DNA from: a virus
DNA length: 41,593 bases
IMG/VR virus record: IMGVR_UViG_3300020595_000003
Location: 1 to 41,593 of that record
Strand: one strand, 5' to 3'
Shown here: positions 8,395 to 41,593 of the stretch, piece by piece
Layout: the number at the start of each line of letters is the position of its first letter
Position numbering within the stretch: position 1 is the stretch's first letter
The notes under the pieces: generated by a model
The model's input: only the letters and a program-made list of their open reading frames with translations
What the model was told of the DNA's origin: nothing
Databases searched by the model: none
Program-made: the position numbers and the translations under genes

Positions 8395-8789
8395 TCAGCA
8401 TCCTTTTCAGTTGTTTTGAGAAATTGAGGGTCGTCTTCGAAGTGGACTACGCGGTGGCAATTAGCGCACAGCAGGTGGCATTTATCCGCTTCGGTAATCA
8501 GGTCGTCCCATACTCGGCTCATGTGCCGCTGCGATAATGGGAAGAGCTTTTGGCTTGGGTCTTGGTGGTGGAAGTCAAAGGCGACATAATGAAATTCTTG
8601 ATTACATCTCTCGCAGATACTTCCTTTGTGTTTCACCAATTCCTGACGACGGGCATTACGCTTGCGACGTTGAGTGTCAGTGCGTGTCGGCCCATGTCTG
8701 TCCGACTTTGAACTCACCCGTGATTGGGCAGTTAAAGTCGTAGTACGCACCAGCTTCCTCGAAGGCGGTGACGGCTTGTTGTCCGACAA
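8391..8789 (-). CDS. HNH endonuclease; start uncertain (TTG 8789, or GTG 8750 with a GAGGA SD)
   Basis: The pattern CERCN...FHH.DP..K...CHLLCANCH fits an HNH/zinc-finger layout. The gene overlaps the DNAP 3' end and overlaps the ThyX start by 4 nt. Confidence 0.75.
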   Translation of the reverse strand: MSDNKPSPPSRKLVRTTTLTAQSRVSSKSDRHGPTRTDTQRRKRNARRQELVKHKGSICERCNQEFHYVAFDFHHQDPSQKLFPLSQRHMSRVWDDLITEADKCHLLCANCHRVVHFEDDPQFLKTTEKDAE

Positions 8790-14021: not shown

Positions 14022-14046
14022 TATACGCTTAGGTGCAACCTTTGAA
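14022..14046 (-). promoter_or_regulatory. Candidate phage-RNAP promoter, copy A (minus-strand reading TTCAAAGGTTGCACCTAAGCGTATA|GGAGG)
   Basis: The 25-nt block is repeated at 22460-22484 with 24/25 identity. Conservation ends right after TATA, as in T7-group promoters. It lies immediately downstream of the RNAP gene, the phi1.1 position in T7. Confidence 0.45.
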
Positions 14047-14068
14047 GTAAAATCAAAAGTAATTCTAA

Positions 14069-16540: not shown

Positions 16541-16763
16541 GCATGTCCTTTAGGTTGTGGATGCGTTGATTAGGTGAGGGGTCATGAACGTCCCCTTTGG
16601 TGAGTAGATGATATGATATATAGACTTACTTTTGATTTTTAATAGATGAGTTAGGTGCGGCAATGCGCCCCGCAACTGTTACCGAAAATGAAATCAATCA
16701 ACTGAATACGGGTTTTCTCTTATGAAATCGGTCAACGGACGGTAATCGGATTCCTATATACCT

Positions 16764-16812: not shown

Positions 16813-17778
16813 ATGACTATGAAGTTAGTCTTATTTTGGAGGGGTGAATCGGCTTATGTCCGTGGAACGACCCCCGACGGTAAGCGAATAAGGGAACCTT
16901 TGAAGACGAAGGACAAAAAGCGAGCCGAAGAGTTACGAGCGGCAATGGAAGCCCGAATTTGGAAGGAACACCTGTACGGTCCAGAAGCGGTTATGACCTT
17001 TAAGGAAGCTGCAGAGCATTACATTGCAGACGGTGGTGACTCACGCTTTTTAAATAAGGTCCCAGATGGTTTTTCACAGACCACTCTGGGTAAAATTGTA
17101 CCAATGGCTGTAAGGAAAGCTGCCAAAGAGGCTTATCCAAACCACGCTGCAGCAACCTTGAACCGTCAAGCAATTACACCCATCAGAGCAGTCATTAACT
17201 ATGCGCATCAGCAAGGTTGGTGTGCGCCTATCAAGGTAAAGGCTTTTCCTACCGTGAAGCCTAAACGTAAGGCTGTGGATGTAGACTACCTTATCGCTCT
17301 GAAGCCAGAGTTACCGTCCAACCTGTTTGCGATGCTGCTCTTTTTGCACACGACGGGGCGGCGTATCGGTGAAGCTATTTCGTTAACGCCTGATGATGTG
17401 CGAGAGGGGGTCGCGCATATACAAAAGACAAAGAATGGGGAGCCAGCAAAAGCTACGTTAGTCCCCGTACTGGTTAAGATGCTGGAGGGGCTACCTGCCA
17501 AGCATGGTCGCGTGTTCGGTTACACAGACCGACACAACATCTACAGCACTCTTAAAAGAGCCTGTGTTCGGGCTGGAGTCGAATACCTCGGGACGCATCA
17601 AGTTGGACGTCATTCTTTTGCAACTGCATTGGAGAGAGAAGGGTGGTCTAGCAAAGCGATTGCGGATGCTGGCGGCTGGAAATCAGTACGCTTAGTAGAC
17701 GAAACCTATATCCACACAGACAATGCTGCGGGCCGTGCATCAGACATGATTGGCACAAAATTAGCGCATGCATTTTAA
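16813..17778 (+). CDS. int: Tyrosine integrase 1 (opposite strand to the phage core genes; start may be the ATG at 16819)
   Basis: The catalytic pattern is Arg in TTGRRIGEA, HxxR-type GRHSFATAL, and GGWKS...ETYIHT (Tyr). An N-terminal SAM-like region is present. Confidence 0.85.
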   Translation: MTMKLVLFWRGESAYVRGTTPDGKRIREPLKTKDKKRAEELRAAMEARIWKEHLYGPEAVMTFKEAAEHYIADGGDSRFLNKVPDGFSQTTLGKIVPMAVRKAAKEAYPNHAAATLNRQAITPIRAVINYAHQQGWCAPIKVKAFPTVKPKRKAVDVDYLIALKPELPSNLFAMLLFLHTTGRRIGEAISLTPDDVREGVAHIQKTKNGEPAKATLVPVLVKMLEGLPAKHGRVFGYTDRHNIYSTLKRACVRAGVEYLGTHQVGRHSFATALEREGWSSKAIADAGGWKSVRLVDETYIHTDNAAGRASDMIGTKLAHAF

Positions 17779-17818
17779 TAACTAATTGAAACTAATGCAT
17801 AAAATAACCATCTGGTTA

Positions 17819-17878
17819 CCCTGCTAAGGGAGTAGGCCCGTGAGGGTCTCGAGGGTTCGAATCCCTTCGTCTCTGCCA
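17819..17878 (+). other. tRNA-Ser(GCU)-like 3' fragment (anticodon loop to CCA); candidate attP core
   Basis: The sequence is CC-CTGCTAA-GGGAG, then a variable arm AGGCCC-GTGA-GGGTCT, a T arm GAGGG-TTCGAAT-CCCTT, an acceptor 3' strand CGTCTCT and G-CCA. No complementary 5' acceptor strand or D arm lies upstream. The CCTGCTAAGGGAGT segment matches the E. coli tRNA-Ser(GCU) anticodon arm as I recall it. Confidence 0.7.
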
Positions 17879-17905
17879 GATTTCGCTGTATTTACAGTAA
17901 CTTAA

Positions 17906-17936
17906 GGCTCCTCTTCGTGAGGGGCCTTTTGCTTTT
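17906..17936 (+). terminator. Intrinsic terminator downstream of the tRNA fragment and integrase 1
   Basis: GGCTCCTC-TTCGT-GAGGGGCC forms an 8-bp stem with one G-U pair, followed by TTTTGCTTTT. Confidence 0.65.
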
Positions 17937-17970
17937 CTAGGGGATGCTACGTGAAAAATAGTAGGCTCAT

Positions 17971-18024
17971 TTGGCACACTTCTGACACAGTTTGGCACAC
18001 TTCTGGCACACTTTTGGCACAGAT
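17971..18024. repeat. Five tandem, helically phased 10-11-bp repeats (YTGRCACA core)
   Basis: The units are TTGGCACACTT / CTGACACAGT / TTGGCACACTT / CTGGCACACTT / TTGGCACAGAT, starting at 17971, 17982, 17992, 18003 and 18014. A further TTGGCACA lies at 17750-17757 on the other side of the tRNA fragment. Confidence 0.85.
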
Positions 18025-18032
18025 TTTTAGGT

Positions 18033-19076
18033 TTACGGCTGGTTCACACGTAGGGAAACTAGACGTTCTGCTGCGTCATCCATGCGCTCTGGTATGAAGT
18101 GAGAATATCTTTGGGTTATCTCTAGCGTGGAATGACCCATCCATTCCATGACTGTCCTTAAGTCAGTGCCTGCAGAAATCAAACGTGTGCAGCAGGTGTG
18201 ACGTAGAGCATGAACTACAAACTGGTTGTCATCCTTTAGTCCTATCGCGGTTCTCATGGTTACCCAAGTTCGACCAAAGTGGCGTTCTGCGATGTGACCA
18301 AATACTTTCTGGTCGTGGCGTGGGATATTGTGCTGGCGGAGTTTGAGACGGCTTAAAATCTCAAGAACCATCGGTGTAGCATTAATTGTTCTGGGCGAGT
18401 TTGACTTGGTCTCCCATAGCGTGATGCGTTTTCTGCCGAGGTCTATGTCTGACCATTTCAGTTCAAGCGCCTCAGTCTTACGAAAGCCCGTTTCGATATA
18501 GAACAGCATTAAGTCCCTATAGTCGTCGTGGTTGTTCTTTTCGAACCAATCAACAGCCTGATGTTCTTCTTGTTCAGTGAGGAACCTTATCCGTCCGTTT
18601 GTCGCAGTCAGGCTTTTCATGCGGGTTGGTTCATTAACCATCTGACCGCGTTCAAAGGCGTCTGTCATTGCACCGTAAAGTATCGACCCAACATAATTGA
18701 TGGTGGTGTTGGCCCACTGACTGTCTGTCATAGAATCTTGAAACAGATGAACCCGCGCCGAGGTGATACCGTCCAGCTTTGTGGTCGGACCAAAGAAGTC
18801 GATGATGGTCTGCTTGTACCAATCGAATGTCTTCGTGGATGTCTTCTTTGAGGTGCTGGTGGATACTCTGCGCTGGATGTAAGCGGTGAGGGCGTCTGTG
18901 ATTGAAATACTGTTCTGGGGCGAAGCCGATTTGTACTGACCAGCCTTCATCAGCTTTTTGAGGGCAATCGCGTCCTCTAAACTATCAGTCGTCCCATTGA
19001 GGCGTTTACCTGCCAACATGGTTTGCACGGCAAACTTACCGTTAGACTTCTCTATGATGCCCTTGGGTATCTTCAC
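18033..19076 (-). CDS. int: Tyrosine integrase 2 (same strand as the phage core genes)
   Basis: The catalytic pattern is Arg in ETGFRKTEAL, VHALRHTCCT (HxLRH) and GHSTLEITQRYSH (His, Tyr). The GTG start overlaps the TGA of the upstream gene (GTGA). Confidence 0.85.
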   Translation of the reverse strand: MKIPKGIIEKSNGKFAVQTMLAGKRLNGTTDSLEDAIALKKLMKAGQYKSASPQNSISITDALTAYIQRRVSTSTSKKTSTKTFDWYKQTIIDFFGPTTKLDGITSARVHLFQDSMTDSQWANTTINYVGSILYGAMTDAFERGQMVNEPTRMKSLTATNGRIRFLTEQEEHQAVDWFEKNNHDDYRDLMLFYIETGFRKTEALELKWSDIDLGRKRITLWETKSNSPRTINATPMVLEILSRLKLRQHNIPRHDQKVFGHIAERHFGRTWVTMRTAIGLKDDNQFVVHALRHTCCTRLISAGTDLRTVMEWMGHSTLEITQRYSHFIPERMDDAAERLVSLRVNQP

Positions 19077-20254
19077 TCTAAGTCATCCTGAAGCATATCT
19101 CGGATTTCCTGCTGTTCAAGCAAAGCCTCTGTTCTTGCTTTTTGTTCGGGTGTCTTCGACGCGTCTCGCAGTTCTGCTTTGAGCGATTCAACTTCATCAA
19201 GTAGCGTTAACTCGGCTGCGGTCAGGCTTTGTATATGTTTAGCGTTCCGAAGTTGTTCCTGCATCATAACCCACTGCGCATTCAAATGTGGCGTTTCAAA
19301 TATGTGTTCTGAGTCGAATTGTTTTTGAAATTTTCGAAGCTGGTCTTCAGCTTCTGCTATTTCCTCATTCGCGTGAGCTATCTCAGCTTCCAGCTTACCC
19401 CGTCTCGTTTTGGGGGTGGGGGTGAGCATGCTTTCGTATTCTGCATCACTTGCAGATTTGAGATATTCCACCACATCGGCCATGCTCTGCTGCTGCCAGT
19501 CATCGGCCATTTGGTCTAACTCGTCTTTCGGCGTACGTTCACGAAGACGCTTCAAAAGTACCTTATAGGTTACAATACCTCTGTCAGTCCTAACGTAACC
19601 TGCGCCTACTTCAATTTTCCCTGCGTCTGGTTGTCCAGCTGCCAAGACTGCGCGGAGGTCTGTTTTGAGGTAAAACGCTTGCCGTTTCTGCTCTGCTTTT
19701 TGGACTTTCCCAGCTAAACCTTCGGCTTCAACGCCTACCGCTTCTACATTCACATTCATTGATGCTTTTGCGACAATGGGTGCGCCAGCAAGAAGACTCT
19801 CTGCACCCATCAGAACTTCACGTTCTTTTGCCTTCTCATCAATGTTAGCTTTCATAGCTTTGCTTGCAGCTTGATAGGCGAAGTCGTTTTTCTCTTCTGA
19901 AAAGCAGGGTGATAGTTTGTCAAAAAGCGCAAGACCTTTTTCGGTAAGGTGAACTATTCTTTGACGTCTATCTTGCAGGTCTTGCTTGAGTGTAATCCAG
20001 CCTACGTTTTGCAGCGCAACAGCTATACGCTGCATCTTCGCTTGCTTGTGACCCAGAGCCTCTTGCAAGTTCAGTAATGGAATCCCGTCTTGGTCGCGAT
20101 GTGCCATAAGAAATAAGAAAGCCTCCATGTGCAAAATGGAGACCTTCTCTTTGCTTAAACCGCCGCTACTGTTGTACGCGGTCGCAAAAGCCTTAACAAA
20201 GTTTAACCCGTTTAAGGCGTTATTCTGTTCGTCGCTCACGTCGATACCTAACAT
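19073..20254 (-). CDS. MarR-type winged-helix domain fused to a long coiled-coil region; candidate lysogeny or recombination-directionality regulator
   Basis: Over roughly the first 115 aa, LHMEAFLFLMAH....LLNLQEALGHKQAKMQRIAVALQNVGWITLKQDLQDRRQRIVHLTEKG fits the MarR wHTH pattern. The C-terminal 150 aa is heptad-like and E/K/Q-rich. The gene is translationally coupled to integrase 2. Confidence 0.55.
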   Translation of the reverse strand: MLGIDVSDEQNNALNGLNFVKAFATAYNSSGGLSKEKVSILHMEAFLFLMAHRDQDGIPLLNLQEALGHKQAKMQRIAVALQNVGWITLKQDLQDRRQRIVHLTEKGLALFDKLSPCFSEEKNDFAYQAASKAMKANIDEKAKEREVLMGAESLLAGAPIVAKASMNVNVEAVGVEAEGLAGKVQKAEQKRQAFYLKTDLRAVLAAGQPDAGKIEVGAGYVRTDRGIVTYKVLLKRLRERTPKDELDQMADDWQQQSMADVVEYLKSASDAEYESMLTPTPKTRRGKLEAEIAHANEEIAEAEDQLRKFQKQFDSEHIFETPHLNAQWVMMQEQLRNAKHIQSLTAAELTLLDEVESLKAELRDASKTPEQKARTEALLEQQEIRDMLQDDLE

Positions 20255-20257
20255 TAT

Positions 20258-20297
20258 TGATTTAAAATCAGTTCTGATTACATTATCTTAATGTCAA
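20258..20297 (-). promoter_or_regulatory. Two palindromes plus a TTGACA hexamer upstream of the MarR-like/integrase 2 operon
   Basis: TGATTTAAAATCA (20258-20270) is a perfect 6+1+6 palindrome. ACATTA-TCT-TAATGT spans 20280-20294. A minus-strand TTGACA at 20297-20292 overlaps the second palindrome. No convincing -10 hexamer was found. Confidence 0.35.
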
Positions 20298-20315
20298 GAA
20301 ATTGCAAGGTATTTT

Positions 20316-21535: not shown

Positions 21536-21593
21536 GGTGTTGGTTCCTTCTGTTTTCAGTCCGTGACTAATGTATTTAAAATCAAAAAAGAGT

Positions 21594-21857: not shown

Positions 21858-21926
21858 GTGGTTTGTCCTCGTGTTGACTGCAGGTGTCGGAGGTGACCCT
21901 GTGTGGATATTTCTAGAACACTTTTG

Positions 21927-21953
21927 ATTTTATGTAAATGAGTAAAATGGCAA
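21927..21953 (-). promoter_or_regulatory. Possible sigma70-like early promoter (TTGCCA-N15-TAAAAT on the minus strand)
   Basis: Both hexamers match 5/6 but the spacer is short (15 nt). It lies about 70 nt upstream of the first early gene. Confidence 0.25.
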
Positions 21954-22281
21954 TTACGTGCAGATTTGTTGCAAGTCGTATTATTTATCGTTCATTTACA
22001 GCACGTTACACAGCTCATTTATTTAAAATTACCGATGATTTTATGTACCGTCTGCTCAATTTGCAAAACGATAGAGTAAAGAAAGAGAGCCAAAACAAGC
22101 CGACGAAACGTAGAGATTCTGCACTGATTTGGCTGGTAACAGTTGTTTTAACTGTCACAAATGACCCCGCCACCCCTTGTTTGTATGGATATAGAGAGGG
22201 GTGACGGTAAAATTGGCGGTAAAACAGTGGTTTCTGTGTCGCTTTGAGCCAAAGGCGGAGGGGGGACGTTTCGCTTGAGGT

Positions 22282-22293
22282 ATATACGTATAT
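22282..22293. repeat. Perfect 12-bp palindrome ATATACGTATAT with G/C-rich flanks (GAGG...CCCCTC)
   Basis: Read directly from the sequence in the control region. Confidence 0.6.
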
Positions 22294-22337
22294 CCCCTCA
22301 GATTTTCTTGCCGAAATCTTTTGGTTAACCAGCGGCT

Positions 22338-22446
22338 ACCCTATAGTTAACCTGCAGTTACCTGTCGGCTTCATATTTAAGGGCATTCCATCTCCTGTCC
22401 ATTTTATCCTTCGAATTAAGATAAGATGCAGGTCAACCTATAGGGT
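22338..22446. repeat. Imperfect 19/20-bp inverted repeat ACCCTATAGTTAACCTGCA ... TGCAGGTCAACCTATAGGGT (70-bp spacer)
   Basis: The arms span 22338-22356 and 22427-22446. 18 positions match, with 1 mismatch and 1 indel. Each arm reads outward as ..CTATAGGGT, reminiscent of a T7-group promoter core. Confidence 0.6.
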
Positions 22447-22459
22447 CATTACCCTTCGA

Positions 22460-22484
22460 TATACCCTTAGGTGCAACCTTTGAA
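22460..22484 (-). promoter_or_regulatory. Candidate phage-RNAP promoter, copy B (TTCAAAGGTTGCACCTAAGGGTATA|TCGAAGG)
   Basis: 24/25 identity to 14022-14046. It lies in the control region upstream of the early genes, the phiOL-like position in T7. Confidence 0.45.
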
Positions 22485-22600
22485 ATGGGTCATATTAATA
22501 AGGGTTTTTACAAGGTAGGGGGAATATCGATAGTCAAACTTACAGGTCACCTATATATTAAACTTATAGTTGGATACTTCGCAGTAACAGGAGCCGGCAT

Positions 22601-22741
22601 ATGTCTCGTTTAATAAAAGTCTTTTTGGTTGGCCTCCTTCTAACAACTGTTGCCTTTATTGTATTAGTTATTTTGGAGCCTTATTGTCCTCCTCCAGAAT
22701 ATTTGGTGAACGACTTTGGTGGCTGTGAACTCGTCGATTGA
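22601..22741 (+). CDS. 46-aa single-pass membrane/secreted micro-protein (not in the ORF track)
   Basis: Hand translation gives MSRLIKVFLVGLLLTTVAFIVLVILEPYCPPPEYLVNDFGGCELVD. An AGGAG SD lies 7-8 nt upstream. The ORF converges on the TerL stop codon. Confidence 0.45.
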   Translation: MSRLIKVFLVGLLLTTVAFIVLVILEPYCPPPEYLVNDFGGCELVD

Positions 22742-22763
22742 GGAAAATTCGAGATGGTACTGC

Positions 22764-26976: not shown

Positions 26977-27828
26977 TTATTTTTTATTCCAATAGAATTG
27001 TTTGTATCTATTGAAAAATTTAGTTGTCAGGCGCGTGTTAACTTCCGCCACCTTATCTTTATCGACAACACCTAACTCCATATCCATCCGCTCTCTCTTA
27101 AAGGGTATGATTTGAGCAATAGGTGTCCCACAGGGGATAAGGAAAGTTCCAACCTCAGACCCTGTCCATACGAATGGAAGGTTTACGTTGGCGTAATATC
27201 TATCTGTATCCACGACACCTTCTATTAGTTGTATGTCGTAGTCCCAGTTGTTCGCGGGGTTTTGGAATTTTATTGAGTAGCCTTCAGAGGTTTCAATAAC
27301 CCAAGGATTGATAAGTTTAAGCAGGACTTTACCCAACTTAAACTTTTTCAACATACAGGCTTGCCCCACTTGGTCCCAGCTATGAGCACCAATCGTCTCT
27401 TCGTTATCGTTATCATTAGAAAAACGCATCTGAATTGCAAGATTGTCGTCTGCTTTATAGCTGGAAATAACCTCATGGGTTTCTTTATCTACTGTTCCAA
27501 TAAGCGTTTCTGGATTGGGAACTACATCAGATAATACCAGCTTGTCTTGGCTGTTATAGAAGTTATGGGAAACTGCCACCTCAACATGTAAGTCTGCCCA
27601 TAATGGTATGATATAACCCTGAGAAACTGCATCTAACACGGGCATACAACGCTTAACTGTGCCAGCTTCCCATTCTTCATGTCCATCAGGTTTAGGTTTT
27701 AAATTCTTAAACCATAAGGGCATTGCCCTTGATGCAGGTACTGGGTGAGGGATTGAGTTAAGTTTCTCAGCGGTCGTATGAAAACTTATTATAGGCTTCC
27801 TATTAAAGAGAAGCATTAAGCGTTCCAC
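26977..27828 (-). CDS. Conserved hypothetical protein (283 aa) following the fibre genes
   Basis: It overlaps fibre gene 2 by 13 nt. The [21 protein letters not shown] and [12 protein letters not shown] motifs recall a beta-rich/cupin-like family of unknown function, though I am not certain of this. Confidence 0.45.
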
Positions 27829-29498
27829 CAGACTGTTGTGGAACCTGCTGAACCACTAATACTTACGTTCCCACCATTCGCAACGTATCCCTGAAACACT
27901 TTGACGTTCTGCCCGTAATATGCACTGTTGCTTCTTACTCCTGAAACGCCTTGGAAACGTCCGTGGACGTGCGTGTTAGCGGAGAACATCCAAGAGCTAT
28001 TACCATTTACCGTTATGTTGGCATTATTAACACTATTGTTGTAGGTTGGACCAGTTACAGTGGTACGAAAGTACCTACCGTTTGAGCCGCCAAGAACCGT
28101 GCCGTTATTACTGTTTACGGTTGATGCGCCTGAATTTGAGAACCACTTTGCTGATGGACCTGCTGGACCTGTAGCACCTGTAGAACCTGTAGCACCAGTA
28201 TTGCCTCGAGGACCTGTTGCACCATTGGAGCCAGCATTTCCTTGCGGTCCTTGATTACCAGTAGCCCCTGCTGAACCTGTAGCACCTGTAGCACCTTGAG
28301 GACCTGTCGGACCTGCCGGACCAACCGCACCTGTACCGCCAGTGGCACCTGTATTACCGGTGTTACCTTTATCGCCTTTAGGGCCTGTAGAACCTTGTGG
28401 ACCCGTACCGCCTTGTGGACCTGTAGAACCTTGAGGGCCTGTCTGACCTTGGATACCTTGACCACCTGTAGCACCTGCAGCACCGGTATTACCTTTTGGG
28501 CCTTGTGAGCCTGTAGGACCTTGTGGTCCAGTGGCACCTGTAGAACCGCGAAGGTTTGTGTAGGAGCCTTGAGTTCCATTAGGGTTTTCAAACCGCAGAC
28601 TGTAGCCTGACCAGTTGTGGTCTGGGGCAGGGCCTGTTGAGCCGGTAGCACCTGTAGAGCCTGTACCACCTTGAGGGCCTTGAGGCCCGATTGCTCCGGT
28701 CGCACCTGTTCCACCTGTAGAACCTTGAGGACCCGTCGCACCTGTAGCACCTTGAGGACCTGTTCCGCCTGTGTTGCCAGTAGGTCCTTGAATACCCTGC
28801 GGGCCAGTGTCGCCATCATCGCCCTGTGGTCCTTGAGGGCCAACTGCGCCTGTATTTCCGATAGGACCTTGTGGGCCTGTAGAACCAGTTGAGCCTGTAA
28901 GACCAATAGGTCCTTGAGAGCCTGTAGAACCTGTAGGGCCTGTATTTCCGATAGGACCTTGTGAGCCTGTGGCACCTGTAGCACCATCATCACCTGCAGG
29001 GCCTGTCGCTCCGATACCGCCTGTCGCGCCAGTATTGCCGATAGGTCCTTGGATACCTTGAGCGCCAGTGTCTCCGTCATCACCTTGTGGGCCTTGTGGG
29101 CCTGTGGCACCGGTATTCCCGATGGGTCCTTGAGGACCTGTAGCACCTGTAGCACCATCATCACCTGCAGGGCCTGTAGCACCTATAGCACCTGTCGGAC
29201 CTGTTGCGCCTGTAGCACCTTGGATACCCTGTGGGCCTTGGTCACCTTCGATGCCTTGGTCACCTTGAGGGCCTTGTGGGCCTGTAGCACCATCAGAGCC
29301 GTCAGAACCGTTTGTACCTTTCTGAGCAACTTGTTGCCAGTAGGTTGTGTTAGTTGTCGCTGTACCAACAGGAACGTCAATACGAGCAACAAATGTTTCG
29401 CCGTAATAGTACACAGCATCTTGTGCAACGTAAGTTGTAGAGGAAACCCAAGTTCCCTTCCAACCCATGCGCACACGACCGATATTTATCTGAGACAT
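27816..29498 (-). CDS. Collagen-like fibre protein 2 (two GXY tracts interrupted by about 30 aa)
   Basis: The 560-aa protein has an N-terminal W/Y-rich domain ([25 protein letters not shown]...YWQQV) and long uninterrupted G-X-Y tracts. Its C-terminal region is non-collagenous and Asn/Ser/Gly-rich. Confidence 0.7.
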
Positions 29499-29503
29499 AT
29501 GTT

Positions 29504-31174
29504 TTACACCGTTGTTACATAGAGGAAGCCATCGGCATCGATTGAGAAATCGTTGTCGTTAGCATCGCCGTAATATTCTATTTGAAGCTCACCATCTGAA
29601 TTGATGGAGAACGTACCGAAAGCTAGGCCGAGTGGGGTTGCACCCATCGCGCCTGTAGGTCCTGCAGAACCGAGTGGTCCTGTATCGCCTTGGTCGCCTT
29701 TAATACCTTGTGGGCCAATCGGTCCTGCTACGCCTTGAGGGCCTAGTGGGCCTGTAGCACCAGTAATACCTTGGGCACCCGTAGGACCTTGTAGGCCGGT
29801 AGCACCCGTAGCACCGATAGGGCCTTGGTCACCTGTAGCCCCCTTAGCACCAGTAGAACCTGTAGCACCGACAGGCCCTTGAGTTCCTTGGTCACCCGCG
29901 ATGCCTTGGTCCCCTTGCAAGCCTTGAGGGCCTTGACTGCCAGTAGCACCTGTAGGGCCTTGTAAGCCAGTAGCACCGTCAGCACCGATAGGGCCTTGGT
30001 CACCTGTCGCGCCTTTAGCACCAGTAGAACCTGTAGGTCCTTGAGGACCCTCATCGCCTGTAGCACCTGTGGCACCGATAGGGCCTTGGTCACCTTGAGG
30101 GCCTTGAGAACCTGTGGCCCCTGTAGGACCTTCAGGGCCTTGGAGGCCAGTATTACCTTCATCGCCTTGAGGGCCTTGAATACCTTGAGGACCTTGAGAG
30201 CCTGTGGCACCAGTTGGGCCTTGGTCACCTTGAGGGCCGACAGGGCCTGTGGCACCAGCGTCTCCGGTAATACCTTGGTCACCAGTGTCACCAGTAATAC
30301 CTTGAGAACCTGTAGGTCCTTCAGGGCCTTGTGGGCCTGTTAAACCTGTGACGCCTTGTGGGCCTGTAGCACCTGTAGCACCTACGTTACCTTGCGTACC
30401 TTCAGGGCCTACTGGTCCTTGGTCACCAGTAACACCTTGGATACCTGTAGGGCCTTGCAGACCTGCAGGACCCTCTGGACCTGTAGCACCTGTTTGTCCT
30501 GTAGGGCCTTGAGGGCCTTGGACGCCTTGGATACCGACTGGGCCTTCTGGTCCTGTAGGTCCGCTGTTACCAACGACACCCTGAACACCTTGAGGGCCTT
30601 CAGATAGGTAGAGAGTGTAGTCACCTGTCGCAGCATCGTAGGTTGCATAACCATCTGTGCCGTAGGGCAGGCGCTCTACGACTGGGTTTAAGTTGTAAAG
30701 TTGATTACGGATTACTGTAGCATCCGCGAGGATTGATAGACCTGTAGTGTTCACAAAGCCGCGTGTAGCCACCTCGTCGTCACCTGTAGGTGTACCAATG
30801 TTCTTGATTGAGTAACCTTTAGCATCCCAGACACCATCTACGTCATCTAACGCGATAGCTTCATCAGCTCTGTCTCTAGCCTCTTCAGCTAAGTATCGGG
30901 ATTGTTTGTTTGCTAAATCAAGGTCAGCTTCGAATAGGGTCGAGCCGTCTGTGAAATCGACCAGCGGCACCTTCGAAGTTTGCCGCTTAATTGTAACTAA
31001 CTGTTGGTCATTAGGGGTGGTTGTAAGTGTGATACTTGTATCGTTGATATAGGTATGTGCAGCCGCAGTTCCGCTCACGAGAACCGTTACATCTGTCCTA
31101 CTGATATAGGGGAATGTAATTGCAAATTCTGAGGTGGTTCCATCGGCGACATACTTGACGATTGAGTCCGTCAT
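29504..31174 (-). CDS. Tail fibre with a T7 gp17 N-terminal adaptor domain and a collagen-like shaft of about 105 triplets
   Basis: [31 protein letters not shown] compares with T7 gp17 [34 protein letters not shown] repeats then run from about residue 193 to about residue 505. Confidence 0.85.
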
Positions 31175-40738: not shown

Positions 40739-41593
40739 TTAAGCAGTTTTGATTTCGACTGCGCACTCAGGACGTAGAACGCCGTGGCCCATCGCGTATT
40801 TTGCGGCCATTAGCGTACCTTGGTACATGACTTCAAAGTCGCCAGATGTGCGTTCAACAGCAAGGTCCATCAACTTAACTGTACCGATTGCAGACTTCTG
40901 CATGACCAGTGCGGCAGTAGTTGAGAAGTTACCGGAGTAGGTATTATTCTCGCCAGATACGGCTGCTACGTTGCTTGTCGGTAGGTTGTTAGTCTTAACA
41001 ATCTGGATACCAGCAACTTTCAGAACTGTGCCTTCAGCGTATACACCGGCTCCGCCCCAGTCACGATTGATGACTGATGTCTCTTGAACCAAGTTGTAAT
41101 ACTGAGCAGGGGCCACGAGTGCCACGCGTTCGTTCTCAGGAACATCTTTCTCGTCCATAGCTTTCGCTGCGTCGAAGATAGCTGCGGCCAAAGCTGAGCC
41201 AGATGTTTTAGCTGTAGCAGACACAAGGGCTGTACCGCCGTTGCCGCCAGAGACAGTCGCTGCTGAACGTGCGCCCAATAGACCTACGCGCATTGTGCGT
41301 GTGTCGAATTCTTTAGCCAAGGCCATACCCAACAGACGTGAATATTCTGCACGTACGTCATAGTGGTTCTTAGCTTCATCGATGTTTGCAATGAAAGTGT
41401 CAGCAATTAGAACGTCATCGATGTTGATAACGATTTCGTTGTGAGCAATTTTCTGTGTACCCAACAAAGGTGTACCTACAGTGTGGTAAGCAGCGTTGGC
41501 TTTACCAGTCACTGGGAAGGACGCTGATTTACCTGACGCGATGGTGCGTGAGACGTGCAGGTCCTTCATTACGTTTACTTCGTCAAATGCGGT
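40739..41593 (-). CDS. Major capsid protein, main body (T7 gp10-like); the 5' end continues at 235-128 after wrapping
   Basis: SGKSASFPV.GK, DEAKNHYDVRAEYSRLLG and AKYAMGHGVLRPE match the T7 gp10 segments SGKSAQFPVLGR, EDAMNHYDVRSEYTSQLG and AKYAMGHGGLRPE. Confidence 0.9.
   Translation of the reverse strand, partial: TAFDEVNVMKDLHVSRTIASGKSASFPVTGKANAAYHTVGTPLLGTQKIAHNEIVINIDDVLIADTFIANIDEAKNHYDVRAEYSRLLGMALAKEFDTRTMRVGLLGARSAATVSGGNGGTALVSATAKTSGSALAAAIFDAAKAMDEKDVPENERVALVAPAQYYNLVQETSVINRDWGGAGVYAEGTVLKVAGIQIVKTNNLPTSNVAAVSGENNTYSGNFSTTAALVMQKSAIGTVKLMDLAVERTSGDFEVMYQGTLMAAKYAMGHGVLRPECAVEIKTA
41467..41593. repeat. Exact 127-bp terminal redundancy (copy 2), identical to 1-127
   Basis: See feature 1-127. 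Confidence 0.9.

Follow-up and report, generated by a model that had tools for sequence, protein, structure and literature searches.

Whether T7-like phages achieve true lysogeny, and what silences the phage RNA polymerase gene, are open questions; integration itself is documented. Both are raised by a locus in IMG/VR virus record IMGVR_UViG_3300020595_000003, which we analyzed over positions 1 to 41,593 (the window, to which all coordinates refer). Here a gene for a 393-amino-acid (393-aa) MarR-type protein, which we call MarRx for MarR-extended (19073-20254, minus strand), lies directly upstream of the tyrosine integrase gene int2. With modest confidence, we favor the reading that MarRx is an extended member of the MarR-like regulators found upstream of T7-like phage integrases and acts as a transcriptional repressor for the lysis/lysogeny decision, autoregulated and made together with int2. 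A preliminary description of this DNA had nominated the gene as a lysogeny regulator or a recombination directionality factor (RDF), on the premise that T7-like phages with integrases generally have no recognizable repressor. That premise is outdated, as MarR-integrase pairs are already on record in phage LUZ100 (PMC10134795), in pelagiphages, and in S42C7; of the two roles proposed, that of regulator stands as the best reading, given the MarR fold and the conserved integrase linkage, and that of RDF fares poorly.

Is MarRx a MarR protein at all? Residues ~6 to 155 (19790-20239, minus strand) make up a complete MarR fold, as judged from AlphaFold, Foldseek and profile searches of Protein Data Bank (PDB) structures, NCBIfam models, and invariant alignment columns. 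A single-sequence AlphaFold model was unusable (predicted local distance difference test [pLDDT], 51), and we used a model built from a 16-sequence alignment instead (mean pLDDT, 74.6; ~90 over the winged helix-turn-helix [wHTH]). Its elements follow the full MarR topology (helices at residues 6 to 29, 40 to 51, 60 to 67, and 71 to 84, strands at 87 to 91 and 99 to 103, and helices at 105 to 118 and 126 to 155), with helix a1 at 6 to 29, the wHTH at 40 to 103, its recognition helix at 71 to 84 and wing at 87 to 103, and helices a5/a6 at 105 to 155. In a Foldseek search the model matched full-length structures of MarR, AbfR, PcaV, and MepR along ~140 columns, with E values from 6e-5 to 1e-3 and prob 1.00. 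A profile of the 16 homologues matched SlyA and many other MarR structures in PDB (best E = 1.8e-5), aligning the wing (D-x-R) with "nDrRak" of SlyA, and eleven MarR-family models in NCBIfam were hit, the best being MprA (1.5e-6). Residues Q71, A72, K73, and R76 of the recognition helix and D95, R97, and Q98 of the wing are invariant in all 16 homologues. In Pfam, residues 43 to 115 matched HTH_34 (E = 5e-4, 20.6 bits; cutoff, 27) and MarR (E = 0.038, 14.3 bits; cutoff, 24.6). The N-terminal MarR-type winged helix proposed earlier is thus borne out by both profile and structure methods, namely the alignment-based model, Foldseek, and the family profile, Pfam alone being subthreshold.

About 60% of the protein (~240 residues) lies outside this fold. 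A variable linker (residues ~156 to 212; 19619-19789, minus strand), delimited from the alignment and the AlphaFold model, is variable and low confidence or disordered over residues 150 to 186 and contains a helix at 180 to 207. It is followed by a small conserved domain (residues 213 to 283; 19406-19618, minus strand) with the motif (I/V)EVGxxYVKTxRGIVTFxVLLKR ... LTPTPKT, invariant residues G217, Y220, T229, L233, and P279, and a predicted beta-hairpin plus four short helices. Searched alone, residues 213 to 283 gave no meaningful match in Pfam, PDB sequences, or a set of 5.8 billion proteins; as Pfam, PHROGs, and PDB offer no relatives of this 70-aa domain, its structure and partner would be new information. 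The remainder (residues 284 to 393; 19076-19405, minus strand) is an acidic helical C terminus. The preliminary description had read some 270 aa of the protein as a charged, heptad-like coiled coil; as a single coiled coil this appears to hold only in part, and what survives is a set of three long helices in the model (284 to 392) with heptad-like patches only at ~288 to 315 and ~337 to 364, as scored simply by a/d positions. MarRx as a whole is a 44-kDa acidic protein with a predicted isoelectric point (pI) of 5.3.

When close relatives are compared, no stretch of the region diverges more than the C-terminal part of MarRx, whose nucleotide identity to relative L010 is 0.40 to 0.57, versus 0.83 to 0.97 for int2. 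In shorter relatives, of ~220 to 235 aa, the wHTH and central module are both present and the helical tail is missing, so that, judging from the ~220-aa proteins, the tail is dispensable for core function. This architecture bears on a structural alternative, in which the wHTH merely anchors DNA and the C-terminal helices organize or segregate phage DNA, or counter a host function, with no gene-specific regulation. The bulk of the protein outside the MarR fold, its long helices, and a fast C-terminal divergence of the kind expected of an interface under conflict would all suit such a tether. We nevertheless give it very little credence: MarRx has no similarity to any SMC, ParB, or defense-related family (PADLOC returned only noise), the heptad character is patchy, and tailless relatives exist.

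If MarRx serves lysogeny, it should keep company with integrases, and it does. The family is rare and marine: a set of 5.8 billion clustered proteins contained 7 close homologues, and one of 1.84 billion yielded 24 cluster representatives at E ≤ 1e-3. We gathered ~40 MarRx loci through protein look-ups and from IMG/VR and marine metagenome data, TARA included, ~20 of them distinct and with enough downstream DNA for a tblastn survey of gene order. In every one of these ~20 loci an int2 orthologue (50 to 98% identity) lies directly downstream of MarRx, usually followed by a second recombinase and then the T7-type polymerase gene, with terminase upstream of MarRx. Full-length homologues therefore occur only beside integrases, with no exception in the set, and the opposite pattern, homologues mainly in lytic relatives that lack an integrase, was not found. 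The linkage persists across considerable divergence, which between loci is far greater in the regulator (26 to 34% identity) than in the integrase (57 to 73%). A tblastn search of 50,697 GenBank phage records returned only two further matches, the roseophage CRP-13, which is not T7-like (E = 1e-5), and, marginally, S42C7 (E = 0.08). The CRP-13 match (MW514247; gp06, 1991-2323) carries the annotation "hypothetical"; at 110 aa it corresponds to the N-terminal MarR domain on its own, with 34% identity, and the two small open reading frames (ORFs) upstream of MarRx are not homologous to the genes preceding the CRP-13 MarR.

The two genes may also be expressed together. The 393-aa ORF described earlier is present in the ORF list, and start-codon evidence and the homologue alignment define it further: translation probably begins at the GTG at 20239, for a protein of 388 aa, because L010 has ACG in place of the upstream ATG, gene callers chose the GTG (as they did on several contigs), and AGGT stands 6 nucleotides (nt) upstream. 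At the other end, the MarRx stop codon TGA (19075-19073) overlaps the GTG start (19076-19074) of the 347-aa recombinase at 18033-19076 in a GTGA (19073-19076, minus strand), as first described. A GTGA or ATGA overlap is kept in five lineages, including L005, L010, L013, and L016; elsewhere MarRx and int2 are separated by 4 nt (L012 and L014) or 24 nt (L018). From the 4-nt overlap and -35-like hexamers in the leader, MarRx and int2 may be cotranscribed. Within the 5′ coding part of MarRx (codons ~36 to 50) there is also a 14-pair hairpin with a T-rich tail (20115-20149, minus strand), which could be an attenuator or a chance structure, the number of terminator-like sites in the region not exceeding that in shuffled sequences.

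What would control such an operon? The 61-bp gap between MarRx and the upstream ORF (20255-20315, minus strand) is where the earlier reading placed it, with -35-like hexamers TTGCAA and TTGACA. The reported ACATTA-N3-TAATGT repeat (20280-20294), overlapping TTGACA at 20297-20292, is likewise present. The "perfect palindrome" claimed beside it exists at 20258-20270 as TGATTT-N1-AAATCA but, at 13 nt, is too odd in length for a strict palindrome and is properly an inverted repeat of the form 6-N1-6. The earlier reading missed a third repeat of this type, AATCAG-AA-CTGATT (20266-20279); it overlaps TGATTT-T-AAATCA, so that the two form a candidate operator of three alternating AATCA half-sites (20258-20279). 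Inverted repeats with 6-bp arms number three in this leader versus 0.097 per 61 bp genome-wide, and at least two separate ones arise in 1.1% of composition-matched shuffles of the leader. The distant relative L016 carries AATCA three times upstream of its MarRx gene (0.38 expected). Three relatives carry the leader unaltered and L010 differs from it at one position, but we rejected this perfect conservation as evidence of constraint, neighboring coding DNA being equally conserved. On these features, a MarR-type dimer would bind the overlapping AATCA-type palindromes in its own leader and thereby autoregulate the putative MarRx-int2 operon, and because the operon would be autoregulated, regulator and integrase would be made together, as in the P2 repressor-int operon.

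Related sequences recur elsewhere in the early region and around the polymerase gene. The 24-mer ACTCATNTANNTAAAATCAAAAGT is present in three copies where none is expected, all within early intergenic DNA, the third copy being inverted (21566-21589). One copy, ACTCATTTACATAAAATCAAAAGT (21920-21943, minus strand), occupies the spacer of a promoter-like TTTACA-N17-TAGAAA sequence ahead of the first early ORF. Another, ACTCATCTATTAAAAATCAAAAGT (16628-16651, minus strand), precedes the RNA polymerase gene by ~90 nt, and just past that gene the core TAAAATCAAAAGT, in inverted orientation (14048-14060, plus strand), abuts a phage-promoter-like element, AAGGTTGCACCTAAGCGTATA (14042-14022); both sites are kept in L005 and L010. 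A second promoter-like site, TTGCAA-N17-TAAAAT (22067-22038), is followed by the pseudopalindrome TAATTTTAAATAA (22019-22031; whole element 22014-22067, minus strand). The genome has 11 copies of AAAATCA, six of them within 1.8 kb of early intergenic DNA (0.5 expected), and AAAATCA is the sole 9-mer family common to the four regulatory regions; its AATCA half-site is shared between these dispersed sites and the leader palindromes.

As for the promoters themselves, AAGGTTGCACCTAAGnGTATA occurs at 14022-14042 and 22460-22480 (both minus strand), two copies versus none expected and the only two clear ones in the genome. Close and distant relatives alike retain the copy past the RNA polymerase gene, and AAGGTTGCACCTAAGnGTATA is likely a phage-polymerase promoter. 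A second candidate for a general phage-polymerase promoter, ACTCAT...AAAATCAAAAGT, was rejected as confined to the early region, and IHF (WATCAANNNNTTR) was rejected as a reader of the AATCAA motifs, the spacing being unfit by eye.

The mechanism that these sites suggest extends autoregulation to the lytic program. Besides its own leader, MarRx may bind the related (T)AAAATCA(AAAGT) sites in the early promoter spacer, upstream of the polymerase gene, and abutting the first phage-specific promoter. Occupancy of these sites would block the supply of phage RNA polymerase and, with it, middle and late expression. More speculatively, the 70-aa domain and acidic tail might link dimers into oligomers that bridge sites 1.7 to 7.9 kb apart or, alternatively, might receive an induction signal or contact the integrase. 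A bolder version, which we regard as a long shot, is a new type of immunity repressor in which the MarR dimer is physically linked to int2 through the tail or central domain, so that polymerase repression and integration at tRNA-Ser are carried out by one complex. If true, these would be the first T7-like phages whose lysogeny switch is self-contained and mechanistically complete, and their hosts would be abundant marine Roseobacter bacteria.

Several observations weigh against MarRx as a lysogeny repressor. For the protein itself, no family-profile score exceeds a curated cutoff: all Pfam matches fall below gathering thresholds, and MprA in NCBIfam scores 28 bits against a cutoff of 157. No MarRx relative, and so no prophage copy, turned up in 185,579 bacterial and archaeal species genomes, and no integrated copy was seen, all metagenomic loci being in phage configuration. 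In the leader, TTGACA has no acceptable -10 hexamer at 16 to 18 nt and a promoter scan calls no full promoter; its conservation is weak evidence of constraint because the flanking coding DNA is 95 to 100% identical in these mosaic genomes. The motif statistics are optimistic, the motif having been chosen after inspection. The dispersed TAAAATCAAAAGT sites, unlike usual MarR operators, are not palindromic, and they might instead serve as promoter elements or be read by another factor; in the distant relatives L012 and L016, no common motif emerged from the equivalent regions. Among known cassettes, the authors of the LUZ100 study obtained no stable lysogens (PMC10134795), and the LUZ100 and pelagiphage studies leave MarR binding, repression, and stable lysogeny unreported (PMC10134795; 10.1101/410191). 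Finally, the CRP-13 homologue sits in the early region of a 55-kb podovirus without an annotated integrase or RNA polymerase.

The CRP-13 gene points to a different role, that of a regulator of early-gene timing in lytic infection, which would shut down or tune the early promoters that depend on host polymerase, including its own, the link to the integrase being merely positional. MarRx does belong to the early region and has sigma70-like promoters upstream of it, some motif copies coincide with early promoters, and small MarR proteins are common in marine podoviruses: Foldseek searches of the viral models in BFVD matched phage MarRs of 110 to 146 aa, including Gp0.7 of cyanophage P-SSP2 (template modeling score, 0.69). 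Yet full-length homologues are never found without a downstream int2 orthologue, usually with overlapping codons, down to 26% identity, and the motif copies that adjoin the first phage promoter and precede the polymerase gene fit a block to the lytic program rather than its timing. We therefore consider a pure timing role unlikely and retain the lysogeny repressor as the preferred reading.

That the phage is built to integrate is the conclusion its sequence supports. The core of its attachment site (attP; 60 nt, 17819-17878, plus strand) is identical to the 3′ part of tRNA-Ser(GCU) of Ascidiaceihabitans/Rhodobacteraceae, spanning the anticodon stem to CCA, and sits between two convergent recombinase genes. 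Because attP matches tRNA-Ser(GCU), both a marine Roseobacter-group host and the integration site can be predicted. Rfam (E ≤ 1) and ARAGORN found nothing in the region, and the tRNA fragment is recognized only by comparison with host tRNA genes. On one side lies int2, or integrase 2, a tyrosine recombinase of 347 aa (18033-19076, minus strand; Pfam PF00589, E = 2e-25); on the other is a second tyrosine recombinase, integrase 1 (16813-17778, plus strand). Among relatives the int2 type is universal, whereas the second recombinase varies in type and orientation, being on the same strand in L012, L014, and L016 and absent in L018. Past attP, at 17904-17928 and 17971-18022, come a terminator-like hairpin and then four or five TTGGCACAC-type repeats at 10- to 11-bp spacing, with one more at 17750; the repeats look like integrase arm sites.

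The attP region also bears on the second role proposed in the preliminary description, that of an RDF or integrase accessory, possibly dual-function like P2 Cox or 186 Apl, which would bind DNA and/or int2 and steer integration versus excision. Conserved stop/start coupling to int2 resembles the lambda xis-int arrangement, no separate excisionase was recognized among the neighboring small ORFs, and the conserved 70-aa domain and helical tail could form a protein-protein interface. However, MarRx at 44 kDa and pI 5.3 is unlike the small basic RDFs, and its fold is that of MarR and not Xis/MerR-like or Cox. The attP region (17779-18032) contains no AATCA/TGATT half-site, which is indirect evidence as the motif is a candidate one, and the repeats there are of the TTGGCACAC type. 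Integration would also be hampered if an RDF were always made alongside the integrase. Taken together these points make an RDF role distinctly improbable, and a repressor made together with int2 remains the reading we prefer.

The locus offers a compact test system, in which clear candidate operators mark the regulator's own promoter and the early promoters and flank the polymerase gene on either side. Its exact attP/attB pair points to the host genus Ascidiaceihabitans (Roseobacter group), and its relatives form a natural series in which the DNA-binding domain is conserved and the C-terminal part diverges fast. Surprise is limited, because the basic MarR-integrase cassette is already known.

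The genomic setting is that of a T7-like phage. Bases 1 to 127 of the window are identical to bases 41467 to 41593 over all 127 nt, and because its ends are identical we take the assembly to be circular or terminally redundant and the genome to be 41,466 bp long, with the T7-like gene order permuted in the window. Gene calls, together with Pfam matches on an identical metagenomic contig, place a T7-like gene set around the MarRx-int2 cassette: a single-subunit T7-type RNA polymerase (RPOL_N/RNA_pol, 823 aa; 16540-14069, minus strand), a T7-type single-stranded DNA-binding protein, primase-helicase, and family A DNA polymerase, and a T7-type large terminase (24509-22764, minus strand). Nearly all genes are on the minus strand, in the transcriptional order terminase, an ORF-poor stretch of ~900 bp, five small early ORFs, MarRx, and integrase 2, followed by 254 bp of noncoding DNA, integrase 1 in the opposite orientation, and the RNA polymerase gene. 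MarRx is thus placed in the early region, between the end of the terminase gene and the RNA polymerase gene. A megablast search with the 6.3-kb region found no match among the 50,697 phage records.

The ~900 bp past the terminase gene (21858-22763) have no convincing minus-strand ORF. They contain two candidate promoters of the sigma70 type, one site resembling a phage promoter, and, on the plus strand, an ORF for a hydrophobic 46-aa peptide (22601-22741), and they probably represent the end of the genome and its early-promoter region. Within it, ATATCCACACAG occurs at 21896-21909 (minus strand), with a second copy at 17706-17719 (plus strand) and a variant at 22177-22194; it includes a DnaA-box-like TATCCACA, and such a 12-mer repeat occurs at about the frequency that chance would give in a region of this size. 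Farther away, two ORFs at the tail-fiber position (29504-31174 and 27816-29498, minus strand) encode ~560-aa proteins with collagen-like Gly-X-Y tracts, and GGN-rich repeats with a 9-nt period run over hundreds of bases at 28150-30600 (minus strand), where local G+C content reaches 0.54 to 0.55. In the 282-bp "gap" between called ORFs adjoining the DNA polymerase gene (8395-8676, minus strand), Cys/His-rich motifs of the HNH endonuclease kind, read by eye only, suggest a candidate unlisted or start-less ORF like those of homing endonucleases.

How, then, does MarRx compare with known systems? Cellular MarR proteins are ~140 to 180 aa long, bind palindromes of 12 to 14 bp, and are mostly responsive to ligands or oxidation. 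MarRx shares with cellular members (SlyA, MprA/EmrR, MarR, OhrR, MepR, AbfR) the six-helix winged-helix fold, the dimerization helices, and the D-x-R of the wing, and the leader repeats AATCAG-AA-CTGATT and TGATTT-T-AAATCA are similar in size to cellular MarR operators; unlike them, it has ~240 extra residues and scores below Pfam and NCBIfam cutoffs. Among temperate phages, the lysogenic operon of P2 and 186 encodes the immunity repressor (C or CI) first and int second, so that establishment delivers both. MarRx likewise precedes the integrase in a putative shared operon. The C protein of P2 is small and not a MarR, and it works with face-to-face Pc/Pe promoters and the counter-repressor Cox; no Pc/Pe-type arrangement or Cox-like gene was found at the MarRx locus. 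In lambda, xis overlaps int, and Cox and Apl are winged-helix proteins that serve as both repressor and RDF. At the MarRx locus, too, a gene for a DNA-binding protein overlaps the start of int, but MarRx differs from Xis and from Cox/Apl in size, charge, and fold, and its candidate motif is absent from attP.

The closest parallels are other T7-like phages. In LUZ100 a MarR-like regulator directly upstream of the integrase is cotranscribed with it from a host promoter, and the same paper cites MarR-like regulators for further T7-like phages and credits to Boeckman et al. 2022 the proposal that the regulator represses the phage polymerase gene through flanking sites (PMC10134795). Pelagiphage genome maps draw MarR beside int (10.1101/410191), and the GenBank annotation of Sieqvirus S42C7 (AP013541) lists a 105-aa MarR followed by a XerD-like recombinase. 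As in LUZ100, the HTVC019P-type pelagiphages, and S42C7, the MarR-type gene described here lies directly upstream of a tyrosine integrase gene on the same strand and before the T7-type polymerase gene; it also shares with these cassettes a tRNA-related attP and a proposed repression of the lytic program through sites near the polymerase gene. The differences lie in the protein, which at 388 to 393 aa adds a 70-aa domain and a helical tail to what elsewhere are small single-domain MarRs of about 100 to 150 aa, and in the cassette, where the stop codon of MarRx overlaps the start codon of int2 and a second recombinase gene flanks attP. The kind of cassette is thus already known, and what is new is a regulator of triple the size, with an extra conserved domain and a tail of helices, in a cassette with overlapping codons and a second recombinase.

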